NCBI GenBank assembly: GCA_905178155.1
Contig: CAJINV010000002.1
Location: 10,458,146 to 10,522,145, forward strand
Length of the DNA: 64,000 nt
Direction: 5' to 3'
Origin: Amoebophrya sp. A120
Lineage: Eukaryota; Protista; Dinoflagellata
A model generated the notes under the pieces. That model was not told the origin of the DNA. It ran no database searches and worked only from the letters and a program-made list of their open reading frames with translations. Shown here in pieces: positions 3,300 through 61,400 of the stretch. Within the stretch, counting starts at the first letter, position 1. Each line of letters opens with the position of its first letter. A program made the translations under genes and the position numbers.

Positions 3300-6200
3300 T
3301 TACTTCTTTTCAGTAGCGGTTGAGCCAGCGGCGGTCTCAACCTTCTTGTCGCTCTGTTCCACGTCCTTTGTAACTTTAGTTGTCGCTTTTTCATCATTTT
3401 TTTGAGCCTTTGCCGCTGCAGCCGGGGCTGCAGCTTTTGCTGGCTCGTCTTTCTTTTGACTCTTCTTTTTGTTGTTCTTTTTCTTAGGTGCAGCAGCTGC
3501 CTGGTCTGAAGTGGCAGAAGCGGGCTGCTCTGGCTGCTGATTGTTCTTCTTTTTACCTTGTCCCTTCTTCGTGCCCTCCTTCGGCGCGGCCGGGGCACCT
3601 TGTTCCCGGTTATTCTTCACAGAATTTCTGGCATGCTCCGCCCAGAAGCCGCTGCTTCGTCGGGGCTCTTCTTGCTGCTTGCCCTGTCCCTTCTTGGCGG
3701 AAGCACCCTTCGTTCTCTTGCCGGATTGCAGCTGCTGTTCGCCACCATTGTAGACTTGTTGCTGTTGCTGACCATTCTGGTACATCATCATCTGTTGCTG
3801 ACCCGTGGCACTGGAGCAGCTCGCGGACGAGTTGCGTGCGACGCCGGAGTTTCGCGGGAGCGCGGCCCAGCACGGGTGCGTCGCTGTATTAGATTCGGCG
3901 TGCGACATGGTGAACGCGTTCTCCAAGAAAGGGTTCTGAACTCCGCAAAAGTTCCCGTAATACGTAGCGGCCATCGACATGGAGCTTGCCCTCGGGGCCG
4001 GAGTCATGTACGCAGCCGTCGAAGAACCGCAGGCAGCCGTCGGTGGCATTTGGAACGGTGCCGCATCCTTGTTAAGAGTGATAGCACTGCTTTTCGCGGT
4101 TTCTCTTTCAGCCGCGGATTTATTTGGAGGTACACCATTGGCTTCTCTAGTATCGTCGTCCGCGTTATTTGCTTCGCTTTTTTTTCCCTCCTTGGCGGCA
4201 GGAACGTCGGTACTACCAACAGCCTCCTTGCTGCTTTCCGCCGGCGCCGATGCGTTATTCGCGATAGCTCCGGAGGAAGGGGCTGACGCCTCCACGGGCT
4301 TGGTGTTGATCATGTGATTGGGGTCCACGAATTTGTTGCACTGGTTTGCGTACGCGTAGGGGTTGTCCAGGGAGAAATGCTGCAGGCTCTGCACCGCCGG
4401 CCCGCCGCCCACCCGCCAAGCGGACAGAAGCCGCTGGTTGGCTTCCTGCAACATGTAGAAGTACTGTTGCTCCGCTTCCTGAAACTGCATCACCAAAAGC
4501 TCCTCCTTCGAAACGGTTGGCGGCACAAACTCTTGCGCGTTCGGGTTGAAGGCGTCCGCGTTGCCATTGTAGAATGAAGGTCTGTGGTAGAGTAATTTGA
4601 CAAAGAATTTTTCACGAGGTTTAGGTTTTTTCCCTGGCGGTGCATAGATATCTTTTTCATGGACCAATGCAGGGATGTCTGCGTGTTTACATGAAACCAA
4701 AGTGAAACTGGAACTGCTCGTACGTCGTAAAATAAAGACACTGCTGCACAAGTACCTTCTGCTCTTTCGTCCGCCGCCCCGATTGGAAATGGAATCCTGG
4801 TCGATTCTGCCCGGACTCGCGAAGGCCTTGGAGACCCGGCGGGAACTGGAGATGATACTTCTCCGCACCGACTTCCGCGCGTCAAACTCGCCCTGCAGCT
4901 TCGCGATCCGGCCGGCCAGCTGCTCCTTCCGGGCGACCTTGGCCTTCTGCAGAGCGTCCAACTTGGCTTCCCCAGACTTCTCCTTCTCCTCCAGGAGCAA
5001 GATGTTCCGCATCTCGCGCTTCAGCTTCCGCAGGTGCTTGTCCTCGGCCTTGTCGTCCAGGAACCGCTTGTCCATGGGTTTGTGGGTCTTCTTCTCCTTC
5101 TATCAAATGTAAAAATGTCTGGGTCTGGAAATTTCTGAGACTTGTCATGCACGTTTTGCATGGGCCATGATGTCTGTGATGCATGCCCTACCATCACAGA
5201 CTTTTTGAGGGCTTCGCGATGCCTATTCCGCATGACAAATGCCTTCTCCGCGTAGCCAAAATTGCATTCCCTTTGCTGCTTATGCAATACAGATTTCTTT
5301 GGAATCCAAATGCAGCATCACAAGTTTGCATTCTTCCAGACCCAGACATTTTTGCATTTGATACCTTTTCCTTTTGGCCTTCCCCGGTGTGCGGCTCGGA
5401 CCTGTTTCCGGTGGACTTGCGCGACACCGGCGTTTGACAATCATTATAGGCAGAGTTTGTTCGGCTCTTCTTCTTTCGTTCGCCGGTTTGCGAGTACACG
5501 GAGGTCCGGCGGGACGCGTTGCTGTACACGGACGACCGACGCCCGTCCGCCTGGCTGTAGTTCGAAAAGACACTGTTGCGCCGGCTCTTGCTGGTGTTCT
5601 GGGTATTCAGGCCGGAGAAGTCGATGTTGTGGTGGGAACCCACACTGCACACGGATTCCCGCCCCTGCACAGACGAAATCGAGTTCCGCCGGCTGCGCCA
5701 GTCACAATCACCGTCCGGAGTCTCCTCGTACGCACGACGGCTGCGACGGGAAGTCTGTTTCATGGATGTTGGTTTTGATAATACATAGATAAAATCTTCA
5801 AGCAAAGGAAAGGGATGAGCTGCATCGAGCCAGAGCAGCCTGCCAAAAGCCTAATCTCCGGTCATACATTAAAGCGTACTACAAACGTTTTTTCTACCTG
5901 ACTCCACCGGGAGCTGTGACGGCTTGACTGCCGCGATTTGTTTTTCGTGATCTCCTTCCCACGACGACCGTGGTAGGTGCCGCCGACGCCCGGATAGTTC
6001 GCGTGCACAAACTGGTCGATCGATTCGCGGTAACACTCTTCTTCCAGGTACTGCTCACACAGTCGGTTGAAGTTCTGTAGAATTGGATAATTATTGAAAG
6101 TACATTATACGGGTTTCTGCTTGTCTTGTTTCAGGTTACACACGCACTGAAAGAACCTCAGTTGCCCCTTGATGTCAGTACCTGCGAAGATAACAACTGA

Positions 6201-13556: not shown

Positions 13557-16005
13557 TCAGAACTCGCACCAGTGCAAGTTGACGATGTCACTAGTGACGG
13601 ACGACTTCTCCACGGTTGGGAGCTTCAGCAGCCGCACCTGCTTGCACGTGTTTTCGTTAATCAGATCCGCTCCGTGCTCTTTCATCGCCTCGTGCAACGT
13701 CACAGACACCCAAAACCTTTTCTTGCTTGCCGGCATGGATGAAGCTGCACTGCCGACGGTTTGAAACTTCTGCTCCGTGGTGTCGTAGTTGTACTTGAAA
13801 TCGGAGCCAGCCGGTTCCAGCACCTTGAGCGAGTTGGTAATGTTTTCATCTTGGTGCAAAATTATCGTACTGACAGAAAAGGAAAACATGGTCAGGGGAA
13901 CAGCAAATAAATTATTGCGACTTTCAACATGAGAACGCCATTGCTGCAAATCAGAAAAATCACATCATACGTTTCTCATGCTCGCCAGCACCTGGTAGTA
14001 CATTTCGCTCTTCTGAGCAAAGTTGTCTAGCACGCCTTTCTCAAAAACGATGTCAAAATCGTCCAGCCCCAGTTCGAGGGGCTTCGTCGCGTCGAGAACT
14101 TGGTACTTAACTTCCGGGTTGCGTTCCTGCATCAATTTGACCATGGTGTCGGAGATGTCGGTCGCCGTGACGTCGTACCCGAACTTCGCCCGGACGGCCT
14201 CGGGCAGCTTGCTGTTGCCCGAACCCAGCATCAGGATTTTCACATTGGTATTCAGTTTCTTGTTCACCTCGTCGACCGCGCTCTTCGTTTGTTCATCTTG
14301 TTCAGGCTTGTTTCCGTCAGAAGGGGTCGGCGTGGCCGTGGAATAGTGGCGCAATATCGGCCCGTCAGGCCCGAAGAAGTCTTGCATTGTCTTCAGAGGC
14401 TTCGGTAGTTCGCCGCTGTTGTTCGTCAAAAATGCGGTCGTCTCGCTTTTCGATGCCTGCGCTGCGACGATGGTGCTGGCTGCCTCCGCACCGTCAGTGT
14501 TTTTCTTCTCGGACGTAGATGGCATTTTCGCGAATAGTTTTTCCTTGCGATTGTCGTCGATCTCCCCCACTTCCTTCATCGACAGCCGATTGCCGTCTTT
14601 GTCTACCGGGAACGTGTCGTCGTTCATGTCATCTTCTTTCTGGTAGTAGAACGGCCAGGACACCGGCAGGGAGACAAAATCTGTGTCCTCGTATCCTGTG
14701 CAAAAGTATCGCACTCGTAGTAATTGCAATCATGCATTACAAATTTTTTTCTTAAGGTAAATCCGCATTACAAATTTGATTTGCAATGCTGGGCGAATCT
14801 GTAATGCAATTTATACTAGTACGATACTTTTGCATTGCATACCTCGTCGCCGTCGGCGATACTGTCAATCTCCTCTTTCTCGGCCGCGTCAGTTCCCTTG
14901 AGCACCGGGGTGGTGGCGTAGGGGAAGAGTTCTTCATCGGGCGCGAAGTACCACTCGTACACGTTTCCGTTCGTCTGTTGGTACAACTGTTCCCAGTACG
15001 CCGGCTGGTCAAACGTGAACGTGTCCGTCAAGAATTCCTTCATCAGGCCGCTCAACTCCGTTTCCGGGAGCAGAGATTCCTTCTGCACCTTCACGCGAAT
15101 CACGCCCCGGAGCACGGACAGCGCGTTCTGCATCTGGGCCATCAGAGCCTCGGTTTGCTTTCCCGTACCGGAAGCCCACAAAACCTACTTCATTGATTCA
15201 CGACGTCGACTTGTTTGTATTAAAGGGAAGTATAAGAGCAATAGCAAAACAGGAGTCAGTGGACGAAACAAACACAAAGCTAATCCAGGTTGCAATCTAT
15301 AAACGGAAAGACGTCAAAGCAGGTGGGTCCTTTGATGTTTACGAATTCCTCCGCTCTCTTGCCGAACGCCTTCGTGTCCAGCAACAGCGTTTGCAGTTCT
15401 GCCAAAGAGTCCGAGTTCAGCTTCTCGCCGGTGGCAGCGATGACGAGCAGGTCCTCCATCATATGCATTATGAGCTTACGGATCGAGTTGTCCCGACTTC
15501 GCCGGTGGTACGCCACCGCCTCGAAGGGATCGTGCACCTCCGTGTCCACTTTGCCCGTCATCTTGTCCTCAATCCCGGGGTACATGTCGCTGACGTCTGT
15601 TTCGCCCGGCAACTCCGGCGTGTAGCCTTTGAGGCAGTCCAGGTCCTCGTCGCAGGCCCGTTTTTCGGCGCGCTTTTTCTCCTCTCGTTCGATCTTTTCC
15701 GCGAGAGCTTTTTTCTTCTCCTCCGCCGAACTCTTGGATTTTTTCTTTCCGGGCACTGTGCCATTTCCCGACGAACCTTGCGACACCAGGTCGTACACGA
15801 AACCGGAGAAAATGCAAACACCGAGGCCCAAAACAGCAAAGAGCCAGACGGGCGTTTTGGACGCTTGGGACAACTTTTTCGAGGGGTGTTTGGAGCCGAC
15901 AACATCGTAACTCCCAATGTTCAAGCTGCTCCGCTTGCCTTCCGGAGTGCTCAAACTGCTGCGCTTTTCAGCGAACGCCCTGTTCGAATCGGAAACCGAA
16001 GACAT
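13557..16005 (-). CDS. Class I SAM-dependent methyltransferase (EEF1AKMT4/METTL13-like) with N-terminal transmembrane segment
   Basis: Exons from ORFs 15280-16005, 14816-15181, 13965-14729 and 13557-13949. Motifs: YWEQLY...YEWY, ILMLGSGNS (motif I), VTATDIS, YQVLDAT, FDIVFEKGVLD. Hydrophobic stretch VWLFAVLGLGVCIFSGFVY. The 3'-most intron boundary is unresolved. Confidence 0.78.
14692..14841. mobile_element. Introner/MITE-like element E2
   Basis: tatcctgtgcaaaagtatcgcact...agtacgatacttttgcattgcata with perfect TSD cctcg (14687-14691, 14842-14846). Three GCATTACA(A/G)AT motifs inside. Removal restores DGDEDTDF. Confidence 0.9.
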
Positions 16006-33700: not shown

Positions 33701-36700
33701 AGGGCCTGGCCCTTGACGTCAACGACCACACCTCCAGCGTCGGTAATTTCCCTCGGAGAAATTTTTGCGCCGGTCGGGGTCAGAAAGTTCGTTCCCGACC
33801 GCTGCAGGACCGCCGTTGGCACCGCTCGTCCCTCGTCGTCCGCGAGAGAAGTCTCCCTCAACCCCTTCAACTTTCTGGGCCGGCTGTGCAGATCGAGAAC
33901 CTCTCCGCCCCATTTTGCTAGTTCCTTCCCACTAACGAGCGCGCCGTCCGTTGCGACGAAACTCCAATTGCTCTTCGGGGCAGCCACTGCGCCGGTGGAC
34001 GAGAACGAAGCCTCTGGTGTAAGGCCCAGCGTCCCAGCAGTCTTCACGCGTTGCAAATTCTTTGCTGCAACCACGTTGTCGTTTATGTCGATGAACTGTT
34101 CTGGCTCCGCCCCAAAACCCTCAGAAAGTAAGGACTTTTCCTCCTCCTGCAGCACGGATTCCAGGACAGAATGCTGCCGTAGAGGCTCGATAGTGCCACT
34201 GCGTTGGGGGTGCACACGTGGCTGCACGGCGGCTGCGCGGCCTCGTATGGACACATGGCGGCCCTCGGTGTCCAGGACCTCGCCGCCCGCCTGCGCGAGC
34301 GCGACGGCAGAGATGTGCGTCCCGTCCTCGGCCCGAATGAAGTCGCCGAGTGCGGTCTGTTGCAGGGTTCGGGGGTCAACCGGTTCGTTATCCAAATCTA
34401 CCAAACTTGCCACCGCTGCGCGGATCGTGACGCACTCGCCGTTCAAATCTTCGATGTCGCCGCCGTCTCGTGCGAGCGTTCTCGGCGTGACGCGGTGGCC
34501 GGTACGAAACGCGACGAAGCTTTGCTTGTCCGGCGCCACCTTCAACCGGTTGGCTTCCACGATTCGCCCATTGGTGTCGACGAACGTGTTTTGTCGCAAC
34601 GCCGCATTTATTTCCTGTTGTCCTACCAAGGCACTCGAGGTAGATGCGCTGGAATCGTGCGAGCCCCGCAGGACGCTTTCCAACACAAATTTCCCCACCC
34701 CGTCGACCACCTCCTGCGCCAGCGAACGGTCCGGACCGATCAGCAGGGAGGCCGACAGCGTCTGGTCCGGACGAACGAACTTGGAGTCTGCGCGCATGCT
34801 CTTTTCCAAATGCGACTTCACACTTTCGTCCATGCGGGAGTGCGGTACCCGAGCCGAGGAAATCATCTGCGGCCCCCCGTCGGGGCGCGGTGTGATGAAC
34901 TGCTGACTCCCCCCTCCTACGTTCGTCGCGGTGCTAGTATTCGGGCCACGGCCCGGCGGGTATCGTACCTGTGCGAGCTCCAACGAGGATGGACCAAACG
35001 AGCCACTCAGCTGCGGATCCACATTGGACAGATCGTTCTGTACGCGCGATTCGTCGAGCGGGGCAACCGAAAAGTCCGGCGTTTGTGCCGCGACACGCGT
35101 CGACGCTGGACCGGGCCCGGTGCCATCGAGATGTTGACTCTCGTGGTCCCCCGTTCTTGTTAGCTCTGCTTGTCTCTGCTTCGAGGTAGGAGACAGATGC
35201 TCGGTGAGATGCGATGAGTAGATGCGGGGCCGATCGGGACTCCGCGACCCGAGCCGGCGCGGCAACTCTTCCACTGGGATGTCTTGTATGCCCGGACGTC
35301 CAGCGACCAGCTCCAGAGGTGGCACGACCGTGTCGACCGGAAGCGGAGGTTCGCCGCGCTGCAGCCGTAATTGGTTCTCCATCAGCCGCAGCTCGCGCTC
35401 CTTCTGGTACAGCAGCTTGTCCTTCATCTCAAAAAGGTCTTTCAGTGCGTCCTCCTTTTCGTCTCGCAACCGCTCCACCTCCTTCGTCATCTGTTGCGTG
35501 AACAGCCGGGTTTGCTCGGTCAGAAGGTCGTTGGCGCACTTCTGCTGCTCCGTAAACATCTTTTCAATGAACGGTTTGTCTTGCGGGTGCTGAGGAACCC
35601 CCTCCCGCGGCGTTGTCTGGTTGACGTTGATGTTCGTGAACCGCGGGTCCGGGCCGCGATAATGATGCTCGTGGATAGTTCCACTGGCCTGCGTCCCGGG
35701 TGGAATCGCCCTCGATACGCCAGGCGGCCCTCCTGCTCCGAACATGCCGGTCCCTGCTGCTACGGCGGACGAACTCCCGATGTCTTCGTCCTGGGAAAGC
35801 GAACCGTTGTTCACGCGTGTCCTCCCGAGCGCATCGTCAAAGTCCTCCGCCTCTGCGGAACTACCGTGTACTTGCGCGCCACCGGCATACGGATTCGTTG
35901 CATTGAGATCGATACTTCGATTATTGCCCCCGCCGACAAAGCCAACCCCGCTTCCCCTTTTTTGGCGTCGCGCTTCCAGCATGGCTGCGCGATCCATCTT
36001 CCTGTCACCCTCGGCGCCGACGGATGCCGCGTTGTTGAGGCCAAAGGACGCGGAGTCCTGATCGCCGTCGAACATGTCGGCCCGTCGCCCCGGGGCTGCT
36101 CTCCTCTGCTCGTCTCCCGCAGTAGGAGAGCTGTTAAGACCGTTGTTACCGCCATCACCAAACACCAAGGCGGGCGCAATCCTAGTGTTCGCACCCCCAC
36201 CCGCTTGCTCGACGCGACCGACGCTGGGTTCGTCGTCCTCCCCTGGCCTTCGTCGACCCCGACGCTCCGTTCTCGTGGCCCTGTCCTCTTCGCGCCGTTC
36301 AGACACGGAGCGGCCTCCACCACCACCCTGTTCCCACCACTCCGGCTGCCGGTTTTCCATTTCCTCCGCTGCGCGGCGCTTCTGCTTCTCTTCGATCTGT
36401 TTCTGCAGCTCGCCGTAGTAATCATTCTGGTCCCGCTGCCGCTTCTTCTTCAGATCGCTCGGCGACTGCGAGTCGCCCTGCCGCTCCCACCACTCGGGCT
36501 CTTTGCGCTCGCGCTTTTCCCGCTCCTTCTTCTGCTTCGCGTCCTGCTGCTGCTGCTCGAGCTCCTTGGCGTATTCCTCGCGGCGCCGGCGCTCCCGCTC
36601 CTTCGCGGCCGCCTTGTCGGCATCAGCCGCGCCCATGTTGGCAAAGAAGTTGTCCTCTTGGATGTCCCGTCCGCGGCCTCGGTTGTTCCGATTCTTGTCC

Positions 36701-39371
36701 TTCGGGCTGCGCGAGCGGCTTCGCTCCTCCCGCATCCAGTCCTGAAAATCCCGGCGCTGCTCCCGCAACGCCTGCTCGTGCCTCCGCTTCGCGCCTTCGC
36801 CGAGCCGGGTGAAAAAGCCCCCGTTATTCCCATCGTCGCCGGGACCTCCGTCCGGGTACGGCGTCCCGCGGTCGGGCGAGTGGCTCCGCTTGCGCAGCGG
36901 GGACTGCGAGTTGCGCTCTTTCATAGCCCGCCGCATCTCCCGCTGCTGCTCCCGCCGGATCTTCTCCTGCTTCTCGCGCTGCGCCTGCCCCAGCTGATCA
37001 AACATGTTCATATTGCCCCCGTTGGCGGCGGCAAGTGCTCCGGGGGCAGAGGGTCCTCCGCCACGCCCGCCCCCGGGGTTGATGTTATCTATGAAGAAGT
37101 CGTCGTTCATCAGCATCGGCGAGCCCCCGCTCGCGGCGCTGGCACTCTTCTGCACCGGGCTCCACTCTCCACGCGGTGTTCGCGTCGGGGATTCCGCGAG
37201 CCCACGTTCATCTCTGCGGTTCAGAATCGGGTGCACGCCGCGCCGCTGTTGCTCCTTCATCCGGGCACGCATCTCTTGCTGCTGCTCGCGCTTAATTCGC
37301 ATTTTCTTTTCCTCGTATGTTGCGCCAAGATCCAACAGGCCCCCGCCGCCGCGCCGGCCACCGCGGGCAGAATCTACTTGTTGCTGTTGATGTTGTATTT
37401 GCTCTACTTCCTGCCTGCCATTTGCAGCAGCTCCTGTTGTGCGGGACGAGCTACTCGGTCGGTCGCCGCGCGCAGAACCGCGGCCCCGTAGGTACTCTTG
37501 ATTGACAGGTGGGCGAGCAACTTCGCCAATCATTCTCTCATCATACGCGTCCTGAGCGGAAATCATGTCGCGGCCTGGGAATACGACGGGAGCAACCCGT
37601 GGCTGATCTACGACGTGCGCTTGGTGGTATGGACGCTCGACTTGCGCGGCGGCGGCACGTGGCTTCTTCGGCTTTCCGTACTTGCGGTCGCCCATTTCGT
37701 GCAAAAGCTCTAGTTCCGATTTCTGCGGCGGCGGGCTGCGGGGCTGTGGTTGCGCATTCGTCGTCCTCTCGTCCAAGTAGTTCTCGGCGAGAGGAGGATT
37801 CTCGTTGTACGGCCCAACCGCGCGCGGCTGCTCCCGATACGGCGGCCGCAGGGCCTGGGCCTGCGACGCGGGCGAGGGGGCTCGCGGGGGTGGCTCAAGT
37901 GCGACACCTCGAGCAGCACTGCCCCCGTTGTCGGGGCCGAGGTTGTGCTGCTGCAGATGCTTCTCCCTCTTTTGCCTCCAGACTTCCTCGCGCGACATTT
38001 TGCGCTTCGGCGCGATCATGTCGAATTCCGTGGTGTTGTCGAGCGAGGGGCCACTGTCGGCAGCAGTGTCCGCAGCAAAGACAAACGGAGCTGCATTGGC
38101 GACAAATCCACCCTGATGGTGCGGCGGAGGTTCCATCGGTTCTGCTCGAGGATGTGCTTGTGATGGGAGATTTCGAGGCACTGTAATTCCGTTATTCCCT
38201 TCCATCTGCAGCTCGCGCTCTCGCTGCCGTTCTGCAAGCCGCTCGGCGCGTGTTTTCTTTGCGCCCGTGACTGGCGGCTCGGCACTGACGAGATCGCGAC
38301 CAGGCTTTTGTCCGTTATTCTGCTGCAGCCATGGCGGCGCTGCGTTCTCCTTCTCCTGACCGGGGAGTGCGAAGTCATAGACGGCGTTCTTTTTCGCGAC
38401 GACCTCGGAATCCCCTGGTCCTGCAGTGGGTCCATCATCCTTTTTACTGAACCTGAATAAACACACAACATTCCCAATAAACTCTGGGTACTCCGGGTAG
38501 TGCACAAGCACACTAGTAAAATTAGCGTCGAATTGAATACGGAGCACATGATCCGATGCACTTGATGTTGACATCAGACTAGTCTGAGACGAGGAGCGCG
38601 TCCCATTAGAGGCCGTACAAGAGTTTTTTCAGTCCTAACACGACTGATCAAAGCCTCCATCTTCGTATCATACAACACGGATGCTTGTGCAAATAATTTG
38701 TATACGCTCTCGGCGCGCCCTGCGGATTGCTTTCCTGGGGCCCAAGCCTCGGCACCGGGACCACGACGGTCGGCTTCGACACTACCAGTCGCTGTTCGTC
38801 CCGCAGTTGCTGCTCGAGATTTGAAATATGGCGCTGTTTTTGACTAGCCAGCACTTCAGCTTCCAAGTCGCCCATGTCATACTGCTGCAGCAACACTTTG
38901 TGCACGGATTTTGCCTCCTTCAGTTCCTCTTCGAGCTTCTGAACTTTCCGCTGCTGCTATCGGGTAGAAACACACTAAGTAGTACGGTATCATATTTGGC
39001 GCGCGCCACGAGATTAGGATCATCAGATGCTGCTTACCATGAAGACTTCTATCTATTAATAGAAGCTTCCATACTTAAATGTATCCGCACAGATGAAGAG
39101 ACAGCTACAAAGACGGATGACAGACTGATGTATGCGATCATAGAGTCATTCTCCAACTTGCGCGGCAAATGTGATGCAGGCTACGGAGATTTCTGTACGA
39201 TAGCTGCACCTGCTCGTTCAGATGGTTGTGCAACTGGCTCTCTACGACGCGGTCCGTCGCCACACGGCGACTCGCTTGCGCACGTCGCATGATCGTTGTT
39301 TCTTGGCCCGCTAAGAATGGTACGTCGGCGAAGTCCGATTTTTCCTGCGGGACCAGACGCTGGTTGTACAC
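24713..39371 (-). CDS. Giant (~4,700 aa) protein: N-terminal coiled coils (CSPP1/CCDC66-like) followed by two repeat arrays
   Basis: 4404-codon ORF 25360-38574. It joins ORF 24713-25189 through a GT-AG intron (about 25213-25367) and joins upstream exons (about 38706-38957 and 39210-39371) with compatible phases. The start codon is unresolved. Confidence 0.8.
26235..27710 (-). repeat. Second protein repeat array, consensus (F/Y)xP(I/V)PExL(Y/F)xxxxxGx
   Basis: FEPIPEQLYVRDARGNYSRVP, YVPVPEELYYKNSAREYVPIPPERF, FSKIPDERFLLNEETNSYEQIP, FLRIPEDTF. Confidence 0.75.
28240..34590 (-). repeat. About 27 copies of a 45-60-aa protein repeat, consensus LQRxGADFVAxDGxxVxPxxLxxFGGEVLDxxGxxVxVxP
   Basis: Counted by eye in the translation, e.g. 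LQRVGCDFVAADKSLVAPATLAMFGGEVLDERGRRVSV and LQRNGTDFVAVDGSQVPAKKLIVFGGEVLDIDGRAVSV. Confidence 0.9.
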
Positions 39372-47020: not shown

Positions 47021-50000
47021 TCACCACTCCAGATTTAGTGACTTCAGCTGGCACTCCACCTTTTGAAGGTCGATTTTTGCCTTCGCCCGCTTGTAGAAGA
47101 TGGGGCAATCGGAGTTGGCGCAGATCACCTCTTGATGCAAACTGTCCTGACACCTTTGGCACTCCGTCCAGAGCCGCTGAAACTCAATCTGCTTCTCCCG
47201 GACTTCGGTCAGCTTCTCAAAGTAGATCTCCGGACCTTTGTCCTTCATGCAGTACTTGCAGAGCGCCAAGTCCTGCTGCTCCGACCCCTCTTTCTGTGTC
47301 ACCATGGCGACGGTACTTGGCTGTGGAATTTAGTTTAGTGAATGTCATGAGCTTTTTGGTTTGCAAGAGCAAGGTGAAAGAATGAGATTTGACCATAAAT
47401 CCTTTGTTCTTGGCGCACATGAACTGCTCACACCACAAGCATTCAGTAATCAGTTTTTGATATAATGGTATCAGGGACAGATCAATCGAAGGAGTATTGC
47501 AGTTTGTTCTAGCTCTACGTGGTCTCTACTGCCATGGAGTTCCACGAAGTCGGACTCGGAGGCCGCATAAAGATCTTCGTTCAGGACGATAAAGACCACG
47601 GATTTGGATCCCGGACCTTGACATTAACGAGCGCAAACGCTATAGTACCTTCAGGGTAGTCTTGCAACCGAGGCACTTTTTCGCAATGGTGACCTTCGCT
47701 CCGTCGCCAAATCCGAATTGGTTTGTGTTTTGGACCGCGGACTGAACGATTTTGCGGGTGTGATCGCCAGTGAACAGCTTCTGACTCGCGTTCGGCATGA
47801 TGGGGTCAAAAATGCGCAGCAACGGGTTGGCCAGCTGGTGGTCAATGTACCAGTGGGCGTCAATGGCCAATCCGTTTTCCAGCACATACATGGGATCTTC
47901 GCTCTTCTCGTAGTGGCATCACCAGAAAAAGTGTTCACGCTACCAGCTGCGTTGCGCTACTTGACGCGCTGCTTTCCTACATCAAGCCAAAAATGACAAA
48001 ACTCAGCCATCAGAAACTTTGCATGCTAAGCAAATATACCACCATAAACATAATATTTCGCATTATTTGAAACAGCATTTTCCAATCTTGTAGATATCGT
48101 GAACACTTCTTGCCGTGATAAATTGGCCGTCTTTTTCATGCTTTTCACTATTACGTAGGGGACCCGGTCACCGGCGCCGGGCGCTGTTGCTGGGTTGCGC
48201 TGCCGCATGCGTTCCGCGAGCTCCACGTGGGCCTGCTTCGCGGCGTACTCGTCTCGGCCCAGGGACTTGGAAATCACGAGCAGTGCGAGGTCCACCTTGT
48301 TCTGCAGCAGGTCGGACACAGATTGCTGCACGAAACCGATGGCCTGATTATAAAGTGAGTATCACCACTTTTTTTTTGGATCGGCGAGACGAGTATGGTG
48401 CATTCTATTTCTATGTACGAGTACTACATCAATAGAAAAATTCGGCCAGAAATACCATAGTACCTTCTCCTTACTGCGGTCAATGAGCAGGCACTTCAGT
48501 GCGGTGTCGACAACGCGCTGTACGAGCCCGCAGTTGTCGCGGCGGACCGTCTCAATGCCCTTTGTGTCCATTTTGTCGTACTTATCCGGATTGGTCCAGT
48601 ACAGGCCTGCGTACCGCTTTTTTGCGAGCAGCAAATACGGAAAGTAGACTTTCTCGAACTCCAGCTTAATCGGCTTGAGAAACGTGGCGGAAATTTTGTC
48701 CGCGGCCTTCAGGCCGAGGTCCATGGACTCCTTTACGGTGTCCGGGCCAAACTTCACCATCACAGAATCCGTGTCGCCATAGATTACCTCGGCATCGTGC
48801 TTGTATCCGTTCGCAATCGTGAACTCCCTGTTTTTTTCGTTTATTCTCACTTTATCCATATCTTCGTCGATCTCGGTAATCCATTATCATGACATCAAAC
48901 TGCATTTTTGCAATCGGTGATTCAAACGCTTTCTTCATCAACTCCTTGATTTTTGCCATGATTTGATTTCGAAAATCCAAGTGTTGTATCATTCTAGAAG
49001 AAAAACGGCAGCTGTACTGTTGCACAAGGTCGCGGGTTTGTTCGATCATGGTCCTGCCGAAAGCGGTGACAGAGGAGGAGATTTCCAGGCAGGGCATCAT
49101 GCCCACCTGCGCACCGGTGAAGCCGTACACACTGTTCGCGCTGATTTTCAGTGCCAGCTGCCGCCCGTTCAGGACCGCCTTCTTGAATGGATCCTGCTCC
49201 GCGTTCATCTCTTTTTTTGCGCGTTTCCTCGCCCCCAGAAGGTCCTCCAGGATCAGCGGCAACAGCCCCTTTCGCTTCGTAGGCTTCACGAAGTAGTTAC
49301 CGCAGGGTGTCACGGTGTAGTCGTCCTCGCTCATGTTCTCCACCTTCCCCGTGCTGGGTTTTATCAGACTGTTGGGGATCAGGGTGCAGTAACACAAATT
49401 GTGCGCCATCATGATCGAGGGGTACAGCGAGGCGAAATCCAGCGTGGCGATCGGTTTGTCGTAGAAATCCGTTTTCGGGTCCAGCACCGTGGCCCCCTCG
49501 AACTGGTCCCCGGTCTGTTCAACCTTGCGCGCCGGGGCGATGTAGCCGGACTCGCGCGCGCGCCGCAGGATTTGCCCGAACACCTTGATCGCCTGCCCCC
49601 GGAACTATCCAATGTGAAAACCCAAGCAAAAACTTAACATATCTTTATCTTCTGCCGTGCAAAATTACAAATTACTTGCGGCCATGATTGCGCAAAACCG
49701 AACAAGGAGAAACTTCTAGATCTATTACGTAATGCGGCCGCACTGCGGCAGCACGTCGACGCTGGCCCCTGTGGGGCGCCACATGCATGCGTGACTTGGA
49801 AAAGTTATCGGTTGCTGCACTAATAATAACGAGTATTTTTGCGTTTTCCCACTGGATAGAAAAAGCAGGAAATTCAACGGCGTGCCGGTGACGCGGGCCA
49901 TCTCAACGTAGTTGTAGAGGCAACAGAGCTTCTCGAGCAGTCGCAGGGGCAGCTTCGCGTCCTTCAGACAGTAGACCCCGAGCCGGCGGCGCGTCTCCGC

Positions 50001-52735
50001 CGTCCCTGTGTGCAGTGTGCCGATCATGCTGTAGTGCACGTCCTCCTTCTGGTCGCCCAGAAAGTGGGAAGACACGAAGTTCAGCGTGTAGGACCGCAGG
50101 TTGTGCTCCTTGGTGATTACGGTGTACATGTCGAAGATGATCCGCCCGTCGCACTTCACCTCCTTCTGCGGCCGCCCGTTCGGCGTGGTCCACTCGCGGA
50201 TGCGGGATATTACAATGAAAAATGCCCCCTCCCCATATCAAAACGGAAATCTGTGATGCAGATTTGTGGTCACAAATTTGTGATGCTAGAAGGCAAAAGA
50301 TGCGGACTGTAGTGCTGTCTAGCGTGGGAAAGCCTTGCAGCTCCAGGATGACAGGAGACAACTGGAAGTGGGAAACAGCATGACAGATTACCTGCAATTT
50401 AGGCCGCAGCTTCGTCTCTTGGCCTTCTAGCAATACAAGTTGATTTGTGTACTCAAATACAGCATCACAAATTCGCGCATCTTCCGTTTCCGATATGGGG
50501 TGGGGGCTTTTTTCACTTTGATACGGGACTGCACCTTCGCGAGGCGGCCCAGCTCGGCGAACTCCGGGATGTCGAGGGCGGCGGCCCGCTTGAGCAAGTA
50601 GGTATGGCGTTCTCAACTGTTACATTCTCAACTGTTACATGAATTTGTCATGCATACCCGACTGCACCACATCAAAAACCTTTGCACCGTCGCCGCAAGC
50701 AGCTTCGGACGCAGGAGATCTAGGGTCAGAAATACGGAAATACGGAATTTGTCATGCAAAAACAGAAATACGGAAAGGGACAAGCTTGCAAGTCTTGCAT
50801 CACAAATTGGGTACAGATTTAGATGCTGTTTAGCCCTTCGATAATTTGTCATGCGAAGCAGCTTGATCTTCTTGCAGCTCATGGTCATTTTGCATGACAA
50901 ATCATGTAACAGTTGAGAATGTAACATTTGAGAACGCCATAGTAGGGCAGATCGAAGTTGAGAATGTTGTACCCGGTGAGGAAATCGGCGTCGATGGCGA
51001 CCACGAATTTGGAAAAGGACACGAGCAGGTCCCGCTCGTCCGTGAACGAAAGGACAATCGTGTCCGCGATGTCTCTATCCACAGAAAAAAACCCATCCAC
51101 ATCCATTTTTTGCATGACAAACACATGATTTGATACGTGTTTTGCATCACAAATTGGATGTGGATGGGTTTTTTTCTGTGAATAGTCTCCGCAGCTGTCC
51201 AGCGTCCAGATCACCTGCGCGAACGCGGGCCCGTCGGCCCCCACGCACTTCACTTCCGCGGCGATCTGGATCACCGGGTTGCGCTCGGCTTCGGGAAACC
51301 CTTTGCCGAACTGGTTCCAACACTCGATATCGAAACTCAAAATCCGCAGCGGGGCGAAGGCATTCTGGTCGGAGGCAGGCTCCACGGACTTGTAGAAAAC
51401 ATCCAGCTCGATCTGGCACGTACCTGAGCGGAAAGGATTCGAAAAACTAAAACCTCCAAGCAACACTCTTTCGTACCAGCACACAGGTATAGTTGTATAC
51501 CTTCTATTTTTCTTGATCTAACTATCTATCTACTTTTGAAGGAAAAAGGCGAAGATTTATCTACTTTTCTTGCAGATCTATCGAAATCGATGCCTGAACT
51601 CTAGTAAAATAGAATCAAAAGAACGGCGCCTTTCTCGCGTACCGACGCGCTCGTCCGGGTTGGTCCGCAGTTTGTACATGCAGGGGGCGAGCGACACCCA
51701 GGACCCGCCGCCAAGCCCCTGGTCTACCAGAAACCGCAGGACGAAGGGCACGTTGGTTTCAAAGGTACCGAAGCCGGTGTACATCCCACCCCCCACGAGT
51801 TGAAAGCCCGTCTCGATGGCGGTGCGTGCGGCTTGGACCAGGCGCTGCACGCCCACGTGCACCTTGTAGTAGGACCGCAGTCCGTTCTCCGACCACTCCA
51901 TGACGTTGGTCTTCTGCACGATCTCCACGGACAGGACGTTTTTGTTCAGGCCGATGGCTACCCGGGACTGCCGCAACTGCGCCTCCAGGGACTCCTGGAA
52001 CACCTTCGCGTCCGGGATCGTGCCCCCACTCACTTGCTGCACGGGGCAGTAGAAGTAGGGGCAGAACCCGTGGATGTGAGCCAGCACGGAGTGGCCCTCG
52101 GGCGTCACGCCGTACATGCGCAGGATGGGTACCTCGGGGTTGGGACTGTCCTTCAGAAACACCGGGTGGGGCCGGCCCTGGTAGTCGTCCAGGTCCACCT
52201 GCATGAAGGTCAAGGGCTTGGTCGCAAAGTACGCGTCTACCGCCGCGGGGGGAGGGGGCGGCGGTGCGGAGGACGAGGACGATGCGGAGGCGCCCGTGAT
52301 TGGCAGGAGCGGTCGCGCGCTGCTGGCCGCGGCTGCCGCTCCATTTGATGAAGTAGAAGACGGTCCTGCGGGTGCACCAGCTGCGGCGTTGGAGCTGGAG
52401 GAACTTGCTGCGTTACTGCTACTGCTGGTCGTAGTTCCACCACCACTAGCTGCAGTCACCATGCTGGACCCGACAAGCGGTCGCTTCCATTGCTCGTAGT
52501 CAATTTTCTTGGGCTCTTTCACGATGTTCGTGCTGTCCTTCAGTTCCACATGGACCAGGCTGCTGGACGACGATGCCGCCGCGGCGCCGCCCAAACCTTC
52601 AGACGTGCCCTCCAGCAGCTGCTCGTCATCGGTTCGAAGCCGTTTCGCTGGCGGGCCGTGGCGACTCTGCTGATCCCGGATGTCCTGCTCAATCAGAGCG
52701 TCGATGTCATCGTCAAAATCAATGTTATCCTCCAT
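47021..52735 (-). CDS. POLD1: DNA polymerase delta catalytic subunit, 10 exons
   Basis: ExoI SFDIEC, Exo[14 protein letters not shown], Exo[49 protein letters not shown], CysA CLGC...CKYC, CysB CQRC...CANSDC. GT-AG introns: 51424-51642, 48828-49017, 48344-48463, about 47294-47648. The five other introns are introners E5-E9. Confidence 0.98.
47917..48120. mobile_element. Aged introner E5 in POLD1
   Basis: Arms catcaccagaaaaagtgttcacg versus reverse-complement tatcacggcaagaagtgttcacg; flanks agtgg/aattg (3/5). Removal of the element plus 5 nt gives KTANYEKSEDP or [11 protein letters not shown]. Confidence 0.78.
49606..49858. mobile_element. Introner E6 in POLD1
   Basis: Arms tatccaatgtgaaaac versus reverse-complement tatccagtgggaaaac; flanks ggaac/gaaaa. 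Removal of the element plus 5 nt gives the conserved [11 protein letters not shown]. Confidence 0.85.
50208..50523. mobile_element. Introner E7 in POLD1
   Basis: About 41-bp imperfect TIR (tattacaatgaaaaatgccccctccccatatc... versus tatcaaagtgaaaaaagcccccaccccatatc...), perfect TSD cggga (50203-50207, 50524-50528), four internal motif copies. Removal gives VQSRIREW. Confidence 0.92.
50603..50941. mobile_element. Introner E8 in POLD1
   Basis: 40-bp TIR tatggcgttctcaa(c/a)tgttacattctcaactgttacatga (39/40), perfect TSD gtagg (50598-50602, 50942-50946), five motif copies. Removal restores ExoII NFDLPYLLKRA. Confidence 0.95.
51076..51184. mobile_element. Introner E9 in POLD1 (near-palindromic, in-frame)
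   Basis: 30-bp TIR tat(c/t)cacagaaaaaaacccatccacatcca (29/30), perfect TSD gtctc (51071-51075, 51185-51189), two motif copies. Removal gives [16 protein letters not shown]. Confidence 0.95.
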
Positions 52736-53691: not shown

Positions 53692-54616
53692 TTACCAGTA
53701 TCCTCCCTTCCCCTTCCCCTTTCCTTTTCCCTTGTACGCGTATCCACTCTCGTAGTAGCTTTGGTGGACCATCACCGGTGAATGCAGGACTATGGGCTTT
53801 GGTCCGCGCTGAGAACCCCAGCCCTCGTCGCCATAGGTACGCGCATCCCACAAACAGAGGTGGTAACAGTTAAGGACTTCCCAGAGGATGTGAAGAAATA
53901 TCATGATTAACCAGCCTGTGGCAAGCACAGCAACGTTGGGGTAGGAGATACAGCAGCACCAATAGAGCCAGGTCCAGTTGTGCAGGAGGTGCAAACAGAA
54001 CTCGGTTTTGCACGCTGGGGAATCCATCCCATCGAAGTTCGCCCTTATCACACTGAAAACTTCCCCTACAACCCTAAGGTGTGCTGGAAGTGCTTGGCCT
54101 GCAAAGTTTCCCTAGGCAACATTTTTGTCTACTTGATGTACAAATCTAAATTTTGATTTACGAGGACACTGAAATACAGGGCGCACAGATGATGTGTCAT
54201 AACATGTTGGAGCTGCGCGAAACATACCAGCCTAGATTTAAAACAAACGCGGCTCATCCTGTTTATGCAAGATGTTTTTTTTTATGCAAGACAAAGAAAC
54301 AGCATGTGAAAACGTTTTACGGATGAAAAACATCACCAACTTTCACTTTCTTGGGGCTGCGGGGAACTTTTCAGTTATGATAACTGTCAGACACACGCCC
54401 GTGCAACAAGCGCCGTTGCAATAACACGCAAGACAACGGACGATTGCATTCGGTTGCCAATACCGGTGACCACCCAAACATCCGAACTCGCCCAAATCCC
54501 GTCCGCGTCTGGGATCCGACCAGCACCGGTCGATAGCTAAAACAGCCGGCATAGTTTCTGGAATGCGAAAATGTCTTTGTCATCGATAAACTATACGAGC
54601 ACCATGGAAAATGCAC
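53692..54616 (-). CDS. Possible Cys-rich membrane protein with a KGKGKGKG tail
   Basis: ORF 53692-54051 has hydrophobic segments and ends ...YAYKGKGKGKGKGGYW*. An upstream Cys-rich block lies at 54343-54552. The exon structure is not resolved. Confidence 0.4.
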
Positions 54617-58426: not shown

Positions 58427-61400
58427 TCAAAGTTCCGCGCGGTCGTGGCCAGCCGCGGGCGGCGGTGCCCCACCTGCGGCGCTCCTCGGCGAGCGGCCGC
58501 TCCCCTTGCCCGGACCTGTTCGGGGCCGACCCGGACCCCCGCGCTTGTTATTGTCCTCGTCGTAGTATCCGCGAGGCTTCTTTCGGCGCTGCGCCGAGGC
58601 GCCGGGGGACTTCTTTTTGGAAGCCGCGTCGCTGAGCTCGCTGAACTCCTCGGCGACGATGTCGTCGAGCTGCTGCTGTCGCGTTACCGCGTTGGTCTCC
58701 ACCCACTGGGCCAGCTCCGTCAGGTTTGCGGGCGACATTTCGTTCACATTCTTCACGAACAATCCCGCAAACAGTACTAGGAAAGTCAGGAAGAGGAACA
58801 GACAGCAGCAGGCCGAGCCACAGGAGCAGGTACCCCCCGACGTGGAAGATGCGCCGGCCTTCGCGCCCCGATCGCCAGCGCTCCCCGGACCAAGGTGCAC
58901 GGTGTAGTCCCCACTGGCAGACAGAGCCGTGGCAGGCCCGCTAAAGGCCACGCACTGCACCGCGAGCTGGTGGATGGGCTTCTTCGCGCTACCGCACATC
59001 TCCAGCTTCTTGAACGGCATCAGGCCTGCGCGGTAGCCGGCAACGTCGAGGGAGTACCTGTTGTAAGTTGTTTTCTCTTTAGGTAGCGGGCGAAAGAAAA
59101 GGAGCACGCAGAGGCACCACGATAAATCAGAATCACAAAACTGATGAAGCAACAAAAGACAAAATCCAAACAAAAATGTACAAATTTTTGTGCCCCTGGA
59201 CAAATCCGCACATCATCCGGTTTTTCTGGAGATTGATGCGCAGTGCGGAGCATGGCTTCGGATCGGTGTTTACTTGTATCGCGCATTTGGGTTCCTTTGC
59301 AGCCTTCCAGATACCCAGCTGTTATGCGATGATTAAAAGAGAGAATAAAAATGACAATGAGATGAAACTGCAGTAATTATTCATGGTCTCCGATTCAACT
59401 CGTTCCTTGTTCTCGATTCCTTGCAGCGACGTGAACTTTTGCTTCCTCACGTTATTTTCCGACTAAACAATAGTTTCAAAAAAACAAAGACACGACTTCT
59501 TCCTACCATCGCAGGGCCCCTGGGACCCGCGGCACTGAGGAGCACACTGTCTTCAGTCAAGAAGTGCGGGAACTTGAGAGTCATCGGGCTCGGCTGCTGC
59601 ACATCAGGGTCGTTCCATACTATTTTCGACACTTGTTCGCCCGTATCGATACGCCAGACGCAACAGCTGCGGTCTTCAGAAACCGTGGCGACAAGCCTGT
59701 TGTGTGCAGTTCGTGCTCGTGGTCGTGCATAAATCCTGATAAAAATACGGAAAAAACTTTCCGTGTTTTAAATCGTCCTCATCCTCATCGACAAGATCGA
59801 AAAAAGGGTGCTAGGAAGTACACAACCAAAAAGGAAACTGAAAAGAATCATGCCGATAGTCGCATCGTACTTTTCGTCTGGGGATACGTCCATAGCTTCG
59901 ATTTGCTTTGTGTGTCCCCCAAACTCCACCAGGGGTGTGTTTTTCCAGTCTGGGTAACTCCAGACCTTAGCGACGCCATCCGTTCCCGCTGTTAGAAGAT
60001 AACCCTCGCAGAGACTGTGGAATTTCATTTATTCATCGTGATAAAATAAACCATGTCTCAAAAATACATACATACACGCTCCACGCGGCTCTGCGAGAGG
60101 TTTGTGGTGCTCTAAATTTGACCCTGTCTCCCGGAAAGCGATCCACCCAACGTAGTACGGGCGAGCAAGGGTGTGAAGGAACCCTCTGCGTTCGTGATGT
60201 GGACGAACGCCGCAAGAGGTGAACAAGGATCCTGGAGGTGCCTGGGCCGCCCTTTGCTGGGGGGGGCGACTTAGAGCGCACCGGCGGGCTCTATATCGAT
60301 CCATGCTCCTGATGGCCGCGTCAATGCGTCTTCGCTACGAGCGTCGTGTTGATTGATTTTGCCGCGATCTTTCAATGTCGGCGGCGGGCTACAAGCCTTG
60401 TGCCGCGTTCATCGTGCATCCTGTATTCTAGCGGATGCAACTGCTCCATCTCTCCACAGATAGAGAGAGGAGGGGGGGAATCTACTACGAGCAGGCCCCC
60501 CGATGCCAGGGCAGCCTCTACGGCAGCAACCCGGAGGGCAGACGCGGACGCACGGGAAAGGCGCAGGGACCAGCCCTGCGAGGGCATTGCATGCGTCAAC
60601 GCGCGTAAGTAAGAGCGATGGGGGGCGCAGCCCAATCCTTCGGACGCGGGCCCATGGCTTTCAGGTGCTTGCTAGGTGGCAGGGAGGCGCATGGCAGTCG
60701 CGGGCCTTCGTGTCTCGCACATCTTTGCGCGCTCGCTGCGTGGCCCTGTATTGGCGTCCCGTTGTCGTATGCTCCGGGGCTGCACACGCAACCGATCGGA
60801 TGCGACGGGCATGCCACAGGGGAGGCTACAGGGGCGTGGGCAATGTTTTTAGACGCTGAAGGCGGCGCGCGATGGTCTAGCTGCGAGCTAGACCTGCTGC
60901 GGCGAGCGTTCCACGGACCGAACTAGGCCAGATGCTCCACAGGCCTCGCGTAGCTGAGGCGGATACATTGTCTCACTCTGAGCGCGTTGCCAGTCGGTCC
61001 TGGCATCTGCTGGGTCCTAAAGACAGACCAAGTACTTTTGTGCTCCGAGCACATGGGCTCCCTTCCCTACAAGGGCGGGAATGTCTCAAAAATGAATGTC
61101 GGAGGAGTTGTATGTAGGTAGTCCTAGTCCTCGGAAAAAGAATGTGCAACAGCCCTTGTTCACACTGCTGCCCAAAACAACATCAGCTGTCAGCAACAAG
61201 AGTTCGCACAAAGAGACGTAAGAAAGGAAGTAGTACATCATTAGCTCCTGGCAGCCCGGGTCCTCGCCGCCAGTATATCTGTTTGGCACGGGTTTAACCT
61301 CGCTTTTAAACTCGTGGACCACCTTCATTTTTTCATCTTCTGTTATCTCCAATACGTAGCCCTTGGGTCCCGCGGACACGCACCACAGGTCCTGTTTGGC

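Follow-up and report, generated by a model that had tools for sequence, protein, structure and literature searches.

A spaced 11-base word common to non-canonical introns of Amoebophrya sp. A120, predicted to be a DNA-binding site of their mobilising protein

How can introns with dissimilar ends belong together, and what would hold them together? This question is raised by a 64-kb stretch of the genome of the dinoflagellate Amoebophrya sp. A120 (assembly GCA_905178155.1, contig CAJINV010000002.1), called here the window. Five of its short elements with TAT…ATA ends (E1, E2, E7, E8 and E9) have divergent terminal inverted repeats (TIRs) and carry repeated copies of the 11-base motif GCATBACARAT. 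Three of them, E7, E8 and E9, sit in the gene of DNA polymerase delta. The elements of the window are known A120 non-canonical introners, with ends other than GT-AG. On the basis of its recurring spacing, of the absence of a transcript-strand bias and of the skipping of introns that are devoid of it, the motif is most likely a subterminal DNA-binding site, predicted for a mobilising protein and comparable to the Ac/Ds repeats, and not a splicing signal. Judged from the sequences, there is a probability of roughly 0.6 that the repeated word is the putative double-stranded DNA-binding site of one transposase, or of its dedicated partner, mobilising all TIR classes. The elements were already known; the shared, spaced motif appears to be undescribed.

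In the 64 kb there are 14 exact matches to the motif, where 100 shuffles gave 0.06 on average, which rules out a chance origin of the copies. All 14 lie within the five elements, which together span 1,177 nt, and none in the remaining 62.8 kb. When one mismatch was allowed, 20 of 24 matches were inside the elements and four in the other 62.8 kb; eleven weaker profile matches can be observed outside elements in the window. The initial annotation, made from the letters of the window, would have given up the motif had it been as frequent in canonical introns: in the 12 canonical introns (3,466 nt) a single weak profile match was found, in one intron, and the enrichment in the elements stands. The strings quoted at that time were recovered at 50642, 50746, 50796, 51143, 50891, 51111, 5230, 14734 and 14765, the copy at 51111 having one mismatch to the 11-mer, and the string at 50843 ends in G, not A. 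Four exact copies in E7 were absent from that list. The claim of several copies per element, usually in both orientations, is correct as to number, multiple sites being present in all five elements, but not for E9, whose two copies share one strand.

The TIRs had also been described as unrelated beyond the terminal TAT. They are divergent, the best end-to-end identity at positions 4-20 ranging from 4 to 12 of 17 among the five elements, with 12 for E1/E2, but the description was overstated since they share TAT(C/G) and an A-tract. Indeed, the pooled ends of all the elements analysed below show TAT in 100% of cases, then C or G, and A in 59-86% at positions 11-15, more weakly in classes B and E. 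The inverted repeats of A120 introners are likewise given as TAT, seven variable bases and then As in the available text of Farhat et al. 2021 (PMC7789003).

A larger sample was obtained from a metagenome scan for an inverted motif pair, which returned at least 107 loci; at least 32 of these are on JACKZZ01 contigs, which were used, and the other 75 were set aside. The 75 loci represent mostly one palindromic repeat family (L002, L010, L011 and about 65 similar ones) with the 11-mer once per arm, from an AT-richer organism and with no BLAST match to the window, and were treated as a coincidence. Element calling over 139 kb of JACKZZ01 contigs and the window produced 109 elements, of which 104 were kept (98 from the contigs, the five motif-bearing ones of the window, and E6); one overlapping locus, one merged pair, one duplicate element and four elements longer than 400 nt were removed before the counts. 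Starting from BLAST clusters, a manual sorting gave 11 TIR classes, E6 being kept apart. One JACKZZ01 protein has its closest match in an A120 protein, with an identity of 72% across the query that rises to 87-94% within two of the exons, and the A120 protein is continuous exactly where two JACKZZ01 elements sit. The full-length identity of elements of this related genome to E1 and E2 reaches 86%; JACKZZ01 (for example L012, L041 and L076) thus shares A120 element classes despite this protein divergence, while introner families are called strain-specific by Farhat et al. in the available part of their paper (PMC7789003). They can be densely packed, 18 called elements being present in 12.7 kb of L012/L013.

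Among the 73 related-genome elements that had not been chosen by the scan pattern, 52 contain an exact motif, a number that rises to 70 when one mismatch is accepted. Profile sites number 1.5-5.1 per element in all 11 classes versus at most 0.1 in shuffles. The top 8- and 9-mers common to the classes, and most of the top 7-mers, are parts of the motif, which can be refined to tGCA(T/a)(G/C/T)ACA(A/g)(A/g)(T/c)t. Once the motif and the ends were masked, only two of the 55 pairs of class interiors matched at BLAST E<=0.01, both at about 30 bits. Within classes, the motif columns are better conserved than the other interior columns in six classes out of six (0.66-0.94 versus 0.52-0.76), values that include some ascertainment bias. 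These results agree with the earlier proposal that clustering by TIR splits one system: the grouping of identical inverted repeats by Farhat et al. yields 1,954 A120 families, and the motif unites 11 classes with non-aligning interiors. The companion proposal, that family identity lies in the terminal trinucleotide plus the motif, is retained for the motif, but TAT alone is no marker, as a motif-free TAT…ATA element with an 8-bp duplication was encountered. The signature of the system is the combination of TAT ends, a 5-bp duplication and the motif. The motif-free element in question (L012:2204-2726) is nested in a class A copy and is probably a second transposon system.

The arrangement of the sites is not arbitrary. 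For neighbouring sites the commonest distance is 31-32 bp on the same strand and 48-51 bp in divergent pairs. A same-strand spacing of 31-33 bp is present in 10 of the 11 classes, in 27-100% of the members as compared with 5-14% at random. The spacers within these pairs are 33% alike between classes, 28% when shuffled and 53% within a class. When measured from the element ends, the modal first outward-pointing site is located at 35-37 or 43-47 bp for 14 class-ends (permutation p=5e-5 versus uniform). One turn of the DNA helix takes about 10 bp, so that 31-32 bp would amount to three turns. A strand bias relative to transcription, for which a test had been suggested initially, was not detected: the 88 strand-called elements have 154 sites in sense and 174 in antisense orientation (p=0.29), which do not differ in score, and both orientations are seen in all nine classes with at least four strand-called members. 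At twelve ends, belonging to classes A, C and J, a one-mismatch motif copy occupies positions 4-14, directly after TAT, and pairing between the arms is lowest at positions 4-7; the element terminus may itself be a degenerate motif site.

The insertions have a constant duplication. A perfect 5-bp repeat flanks 75 of 107 end pairs that were formed blind to the duplication, although with an end library derived from elements picked with duplications, and a repeat of 6-10 bp flanks none of the 107. The target bases are mixed, with a slight preference for C at position 1 and G at position 5. The length is 109-347 nt for 105 of the 109 called elements. Short, with TIRs and a constant duplication, and with no transposase family in 149 open reading frames (ORFs), they have the properties of miniature inverted-repeat transposable elements. 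The motif is also tied to repetition. The summed contig depth, which is no copy number, reaches 33,065 and 20,713 in the bins containing E7-E9, versus about 25 for two further hairpin introns of the same gene, E5 and E6. In the bins of E7-E9 the depth exceeds background about 1,000-fold, on 2,564 contigs of run X1 (possibly the window's own source), and such repetition was not observed for E5 and E6. At the left ends of E8 and E9, 14 and 16 contigs respectively depart into unlike flanks.

The host gene provides a view of how these elements are removed from RNA. Over the exon at 49020-49595 the translation matches, at 100% identity, a DNA polymerase delta of 1,203 aa that bears the name Amoebophrya sp. 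A120, and cutting out nine introns from 52735 downward gives exactly this protein (Table 1). Five of the nine introns (E5 to E9) are hairpin elements with TAT…ATA ends, each intron consisting of the element plus one copy of the 5-bp target duplication. A 3,910-nt contig of polymerase delta (run X4, whose RNA label is a guess) skips the introns of E5, E6 and E7 as well as canonical introns. The E7 skip is 321 nt long, with five letters that fit at either side. The skips of E8 and E9 follow indirectly from the contig coordinates, which leave 1,729 nt, exactly the sum of the exons once E8, E9 and a 219-nt canonical intron are taken out. The reading frame is kept solely by the removal of the element plus 5 nt, when 0, 3, 4, 5 and 6 nt were tried. 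In E5 and E6 the 5' cut is at the TAT or 1 nt ahead of it, and the 3' cut 5 or 4 nt, respectively, beyond the ATA; because their duplications are unequal, the cut position is fixed and the downstream duplication copy is the one removed. One register is therefore used by five elements with different arms, indirectly in the case of E8 and E9. E5 and E6 contain no motif, their best profile scores lying below the threshold of 10, and have the DNA depth of a single copy; they are nevertheless left out in that register. In these two cases the motif is dispensable for excision, and it accompanies repetition. In E1, a putative removal of the element plus 5 nt would unite the longest minus-strand frames. 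A motif-free class H element, L076:4890-5016, has a length plus duplication of 132 nt, in frame and stop-free inside a Sec23/24-like ORF, and may be retained in the protein.

Table 1. Host gene, hairpin elements and motif copies in the window (distances in bp are from the centre of the copy to the element end, or between copies)
Feature	Position	Strand	Description
DNA polymerase delta catalytic subunit (host gene)	47021..52735	-	10 exons, 1,203 aa; spliced model = A120 protein P0001
E1, class A	5101..5363		duplication 4/5; five motif sites, one exact
E2, class C, in methyltransferase gene	14692..14841		perfect 5-bp duplication; four motif sites, three exact
E5, single-copy hairpin intron, motif-free	47917..48120		one end decayed to CAT; duplication 3/5; intron 47912-48120 (or shifted by 1), skipped in X4 contig; DNA depth ~25; best profile score 4.9
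E6, single-copy TAT…ATA intron, motif-free	49606..49858		duplication 3/5; intron 49601-49858 (or shifted by 1), skipped in X4 contig; DNA depth ~25; best profile score 4.3
E7, class G, TAT…ATA, 316 nt	50208..50523		TIR; perfect 5-bp duplication; intron 50203-50523, skipped in X4 contig
Motif, E7	50249..50259	-	47 bp from left end
Motif, E7	50276..50286	-	pattern match
Motif, E7	50378..50388	+	pattern match
Degenerate motif, E7	50430..50440	+	profile score 13.8; next copy 32 bp on
Motif, E7	50462..50472	+	57 bp from right end
E8, class B, TAT…ATA, 339 nt	50603..50941		43-nt inverted repeat; perfect 5-bp duplication; intron 50598-50941; skip inferred (contig coordinates and ORF)
Motif, E8	50643..50653	-	46 bp from left end
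Motif, E8	50747..50757	-	pattern match
Motif, E8	50797..50807	+	divergent partner of 50747..50757 copy, 50 bp
Motif, E8	50844..50854	-	pattern match
Motif, E8	50892..50902	+	45 bp from right end
E9, class H, TAT…ATA, 109 nt	51076..51184		38-nt inverted repeat; perfect 5-bp duplication; intron 51071-51184; skip inferred (contig coordinates and ORF)
Motif, E9, one mismatch	51112..51122	+	one-mismatch scan
Motif, E9	51144..51154	+	32 bp after 51112..51122 copy; 36 bp from right end

A model can be proposed. Copies of the protein would bind the 3-5 sites of an element, whose distance is about 36 or 45 bp to an end, two positions that differ by one helical turn, and 31-32 bp, or three turns, from site to site. 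The bound proteins would then pair the two TAT ends, and insertion would proceed with a 5-bp stagger, probably by the action of an integrase-type DDE enzyme, to which the combination of this stagger with TA ends points. With specificity residing in the motif, the rest of the TIR after TAT would be free to drift between classes as long as both arms stay complementary. At the RNA level, the intron would be marked by the hairpin of the arms rather than by the motif, and the cuts described above for E5 and E6 would eliminate the downstream duplication and restore the frame. A bolder version, which is doubtful, would make of the TAT introners of A120 one transposon system. Its mobiliser would read only the helically phased 11-base array and cut at the TAT located a fixed number of turns away, TIR complementarity being kept for RNA excision and not for recognition by the enzyme. 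New families could then arise from any DNA gaining the array and a TAT hairpin, by means of a host-encoded or unrecognised integrase-like protein missed by searches for transposase homology.

Of the two roles initially envisaged for the motif, transposase site or signal for a splicing factor, the former is favoured by the strand symmetry, by the recurring spacings and by the tie to copy number. The main rival is a host DNA-binding factor. The motif would bind an architectural, chromatin or ApiAP2-type protein co-opted for transposition or for escape from silencing, and the transposase would read the ends only. This alternative, which is unlikely, accounts equally well for the strand symmetry and the spacing, and is consistent with the lack of a known transposase in A120, as reported in the available text of PMC7789003. 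The 5' half of the motif, TGCATG, is moreover the start of TGCATGCA, bound by Plasmodium AP2-EXP according to the accessible part of PMC11417369, and the eleven weaker profile matches outside elements would be natural for a host protein. The complete absence of exact copies in the other 62.8 kb however speaks against such a factor, and the motif is asymmetric and longer than the AP2-EXP palindrome. Its positions are also tied to the element ends, and the TIRs are too different across classes to be the sole recognition sequence of one enzyme.

An action of the motif in RNA, either as a splicing-factor site or as paired segments lengthening the excision hairpin, is less probable still. All the exact copies of the window do sit in non-canonical introns, and inverted copies near both ends of E8 pair in the predicted fold. 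U1 small nuclear RNA was undetected in A120 as far as the available text of PMC7789003 goes, and an unknown intron recogniser is therefore expected. This role is nevertheless disfavoured because skipping in the same register takes place in E5 and E6, which have no motif; no transcript-strand bias exists, and same-strand pairs such as that of E9 cannot pair mutually, yet their spacing recurs. The remaining possibility, very improbable, is a neutral relic, the word being kept only by descent from one repeat-bearing ancestor of all classes. Shared ancestry is plausible in view of the TAT(C/G), the A-tract and the 5-bp duplication common to the classes, and the spacers are slightly more alike between classes than when shuffled (0.33 versus 0.28). 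A relic should not, however, remain near-intact while the interiors no longer align, nor be more conserved than its neighbours within classes. A structured RNA family was also considered and rejected, as only miRNA-hairpin models were retrieved, far below their gathering scores.

Several observations weigh against a binding site for a mobilising protein, beginning with the enzyme. No transposase family was identified among 116 ORFs of the related contigs or 33 ORFs of the window, and a long motif-bearing copy coding for a DDE transposase, as envisaged initially, was not found in the 64-kb window and the 139 kb of contigs. Farhat et al. also report, in the available part of their paper, that A120 showed no transposase, and they exclude a general mobilisation by such enzymes (PMC7789003). 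As to the motif, its profile was trained on the 73 related-genome elements themselves. Class F has an exact copy in none of seven members, even if all seven have one with a single mismatch, and 195 profile matches fall outside called elements in 113 kb of related contigs: many of these are at unpaired ends and several in elements later recovered, the rest being partly untraced. The geometry is imperfect too. Class B is devoid of any 31-33 bp pair, and the phasing of inward-pointing first sites (40-56 bp) is not significant (p=0.14). The phasing of the outward-pointing ones rests on two peaks which periods of 9-11 fit equally, the two ends of a class not being independent. The element strands were taken from a codon model, and orientation is skewed in class A (16:5) and class D (7:2). 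The number of sites barely follows decay (3.4, 3.5 and 3.9 per element at a duplication of 3, 4 and 5 out of 5). Motif-free spliced introns are limited to two, whose motif remnants are at chance level, so that E5 and E6 cannot be shown ever to have had the motif. Lastly, selection on the hairpin arms at the RNA level is not apparent, with 76 G·U as against 65 A·C among the TIR mismatches (p=0.40); for E5 and E6 the count is 4 versus 0, too few to be interpreted.

The search for the enzyme was extended in other directions. The four elements longer than 400 nt showed no ORF of transposase size, the longest being 149 aa. Viral scans returned one match for the inverted motif pair and none for three other patterns, and a prokaryote scan returned 15 matches, which fall within reading frames or short repeats and none of which is part of a convincing TIR element; these outcomes are nil or at the level of chance. 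At L040:571-1051, L041:3862-4492 and L047:4568-5189 there are long copies, similar to Ds2 elements, whose normal ends enclose filler DNA of unrelated sequence.

Comparison with known systems is confined here to the portions of the cited papers that were available. The closest are the A120 introners themselves (PMC7789003, PMC12130899), alike in organism, non-canonical boundaries, inverted repeats with TAT and an A-stretch, short direct repeats and high copy number, and of similar lengths (about 110, 150, 210, 235, 260, 305 and 320 nt); the direct repeats of Farhat et al. are 3-5 nt at a variable position (PMC7789003), whereas a constant 5 bp is found here. Most A120 families are placed in superfamily 'Unknown' in the table of Gozashti et al. 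2025 (PMC12130899). Family 38 of the same source has an integrase-like (Copia/Gypsy-like) homology with a 5-bp target-site duplication and TA/TA ends, both of the latter as here. In the literature searched, no description was found of the internal motif, of its spacing or of a single system behind the families, figures S19-S25 of the PMC7789003 supplement being those that may bear on this novelty.

Among transposons, Ac/Ds offers the nearest parallel (PMC3260210). Apart from the TIR, all that Ds1 and Ac have in common is a few hexamers bound by the transposase. Short non-autonomous elements with little in common beyond their ends and subterminal repeats are found in both systems, the repeats being bound by the transposase in Ac/Ds and predicted to be so here. 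Ac/Ds has however one 11-bp TIR and an 8-bp duplication, whereas the present elements have a class-varying TIR, a 5-bp duplication, a spaced 11-bp word and a traceless removal from mRNA. The hAT hallmarks of an 8-bp duplication and one TIR are indeed absent (0/107 pairs at 8 bp; 11 TIR classes), while hAT-like subterminal repeats are present and end-anchored in the A120-type elements, their binding being putative. Tn7-like ends resemble these arrays by having several transposase (TnsB) sites inside both ends, but are prokaryotic, with sites of about 20 bp and the outermost at a median of 12 bp from the end (PMC8649781), as opposed to 11 bp, at least 35 bp from the end and spread through the element. 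IS3EU/GingerRoot has the same TA..TA ends, but its duplication is usually 6 bp (PMC10045372), a length seen in 0/107 pairs here. Ginger2/Tdd has a 4- or 5-bp duplication (5 bp in TDD-4/5), which agrees with the present elements, but TGTNR termini and an AT-rich RTATAY target (PMC2836005) where TAT ends and a mixed target are observed here. With respect to excision, SOS splicing (PMC12779559) and the euglenid nonconventional introns (PMC11282704) involve removal from RNA of TIR elements, triggered by or associated with end pairing and without GT-AG. SOS splicing, which is set off by pairing of the inverted repeats whatever their sequence and requires AKAP17A, CAAP1 and RTCB, gave relatively few in-frame events for one reporter (PMC12779559), while the cut restores the frame exactly in the present case.

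The motif bears on the spread of tens of thousands of A120 non-canonical introns, as it collapses 1,954 families into probably one system. It can serve as bait for the mobilising protein and as a probe for autonomous copies. Two putative functions are moreover separated, movement by means of a DNA word and removal by means of an RNA hairpin, and either can be tested alone.

Other features of the window deserve mention. Two further TAT…ATA candidates, at 54046-54382 and 38958-39202, are decayed and have no more than one weak site; no splicing of them was seen. A canonical intron of 1,222 nt (60015-61236) contains a repeat at about ten times the background depth, with variant copies. Finally, a 4,422-codon open frame with internal repeats and no Pfam match occupies 25363-38628 on the minus strand.

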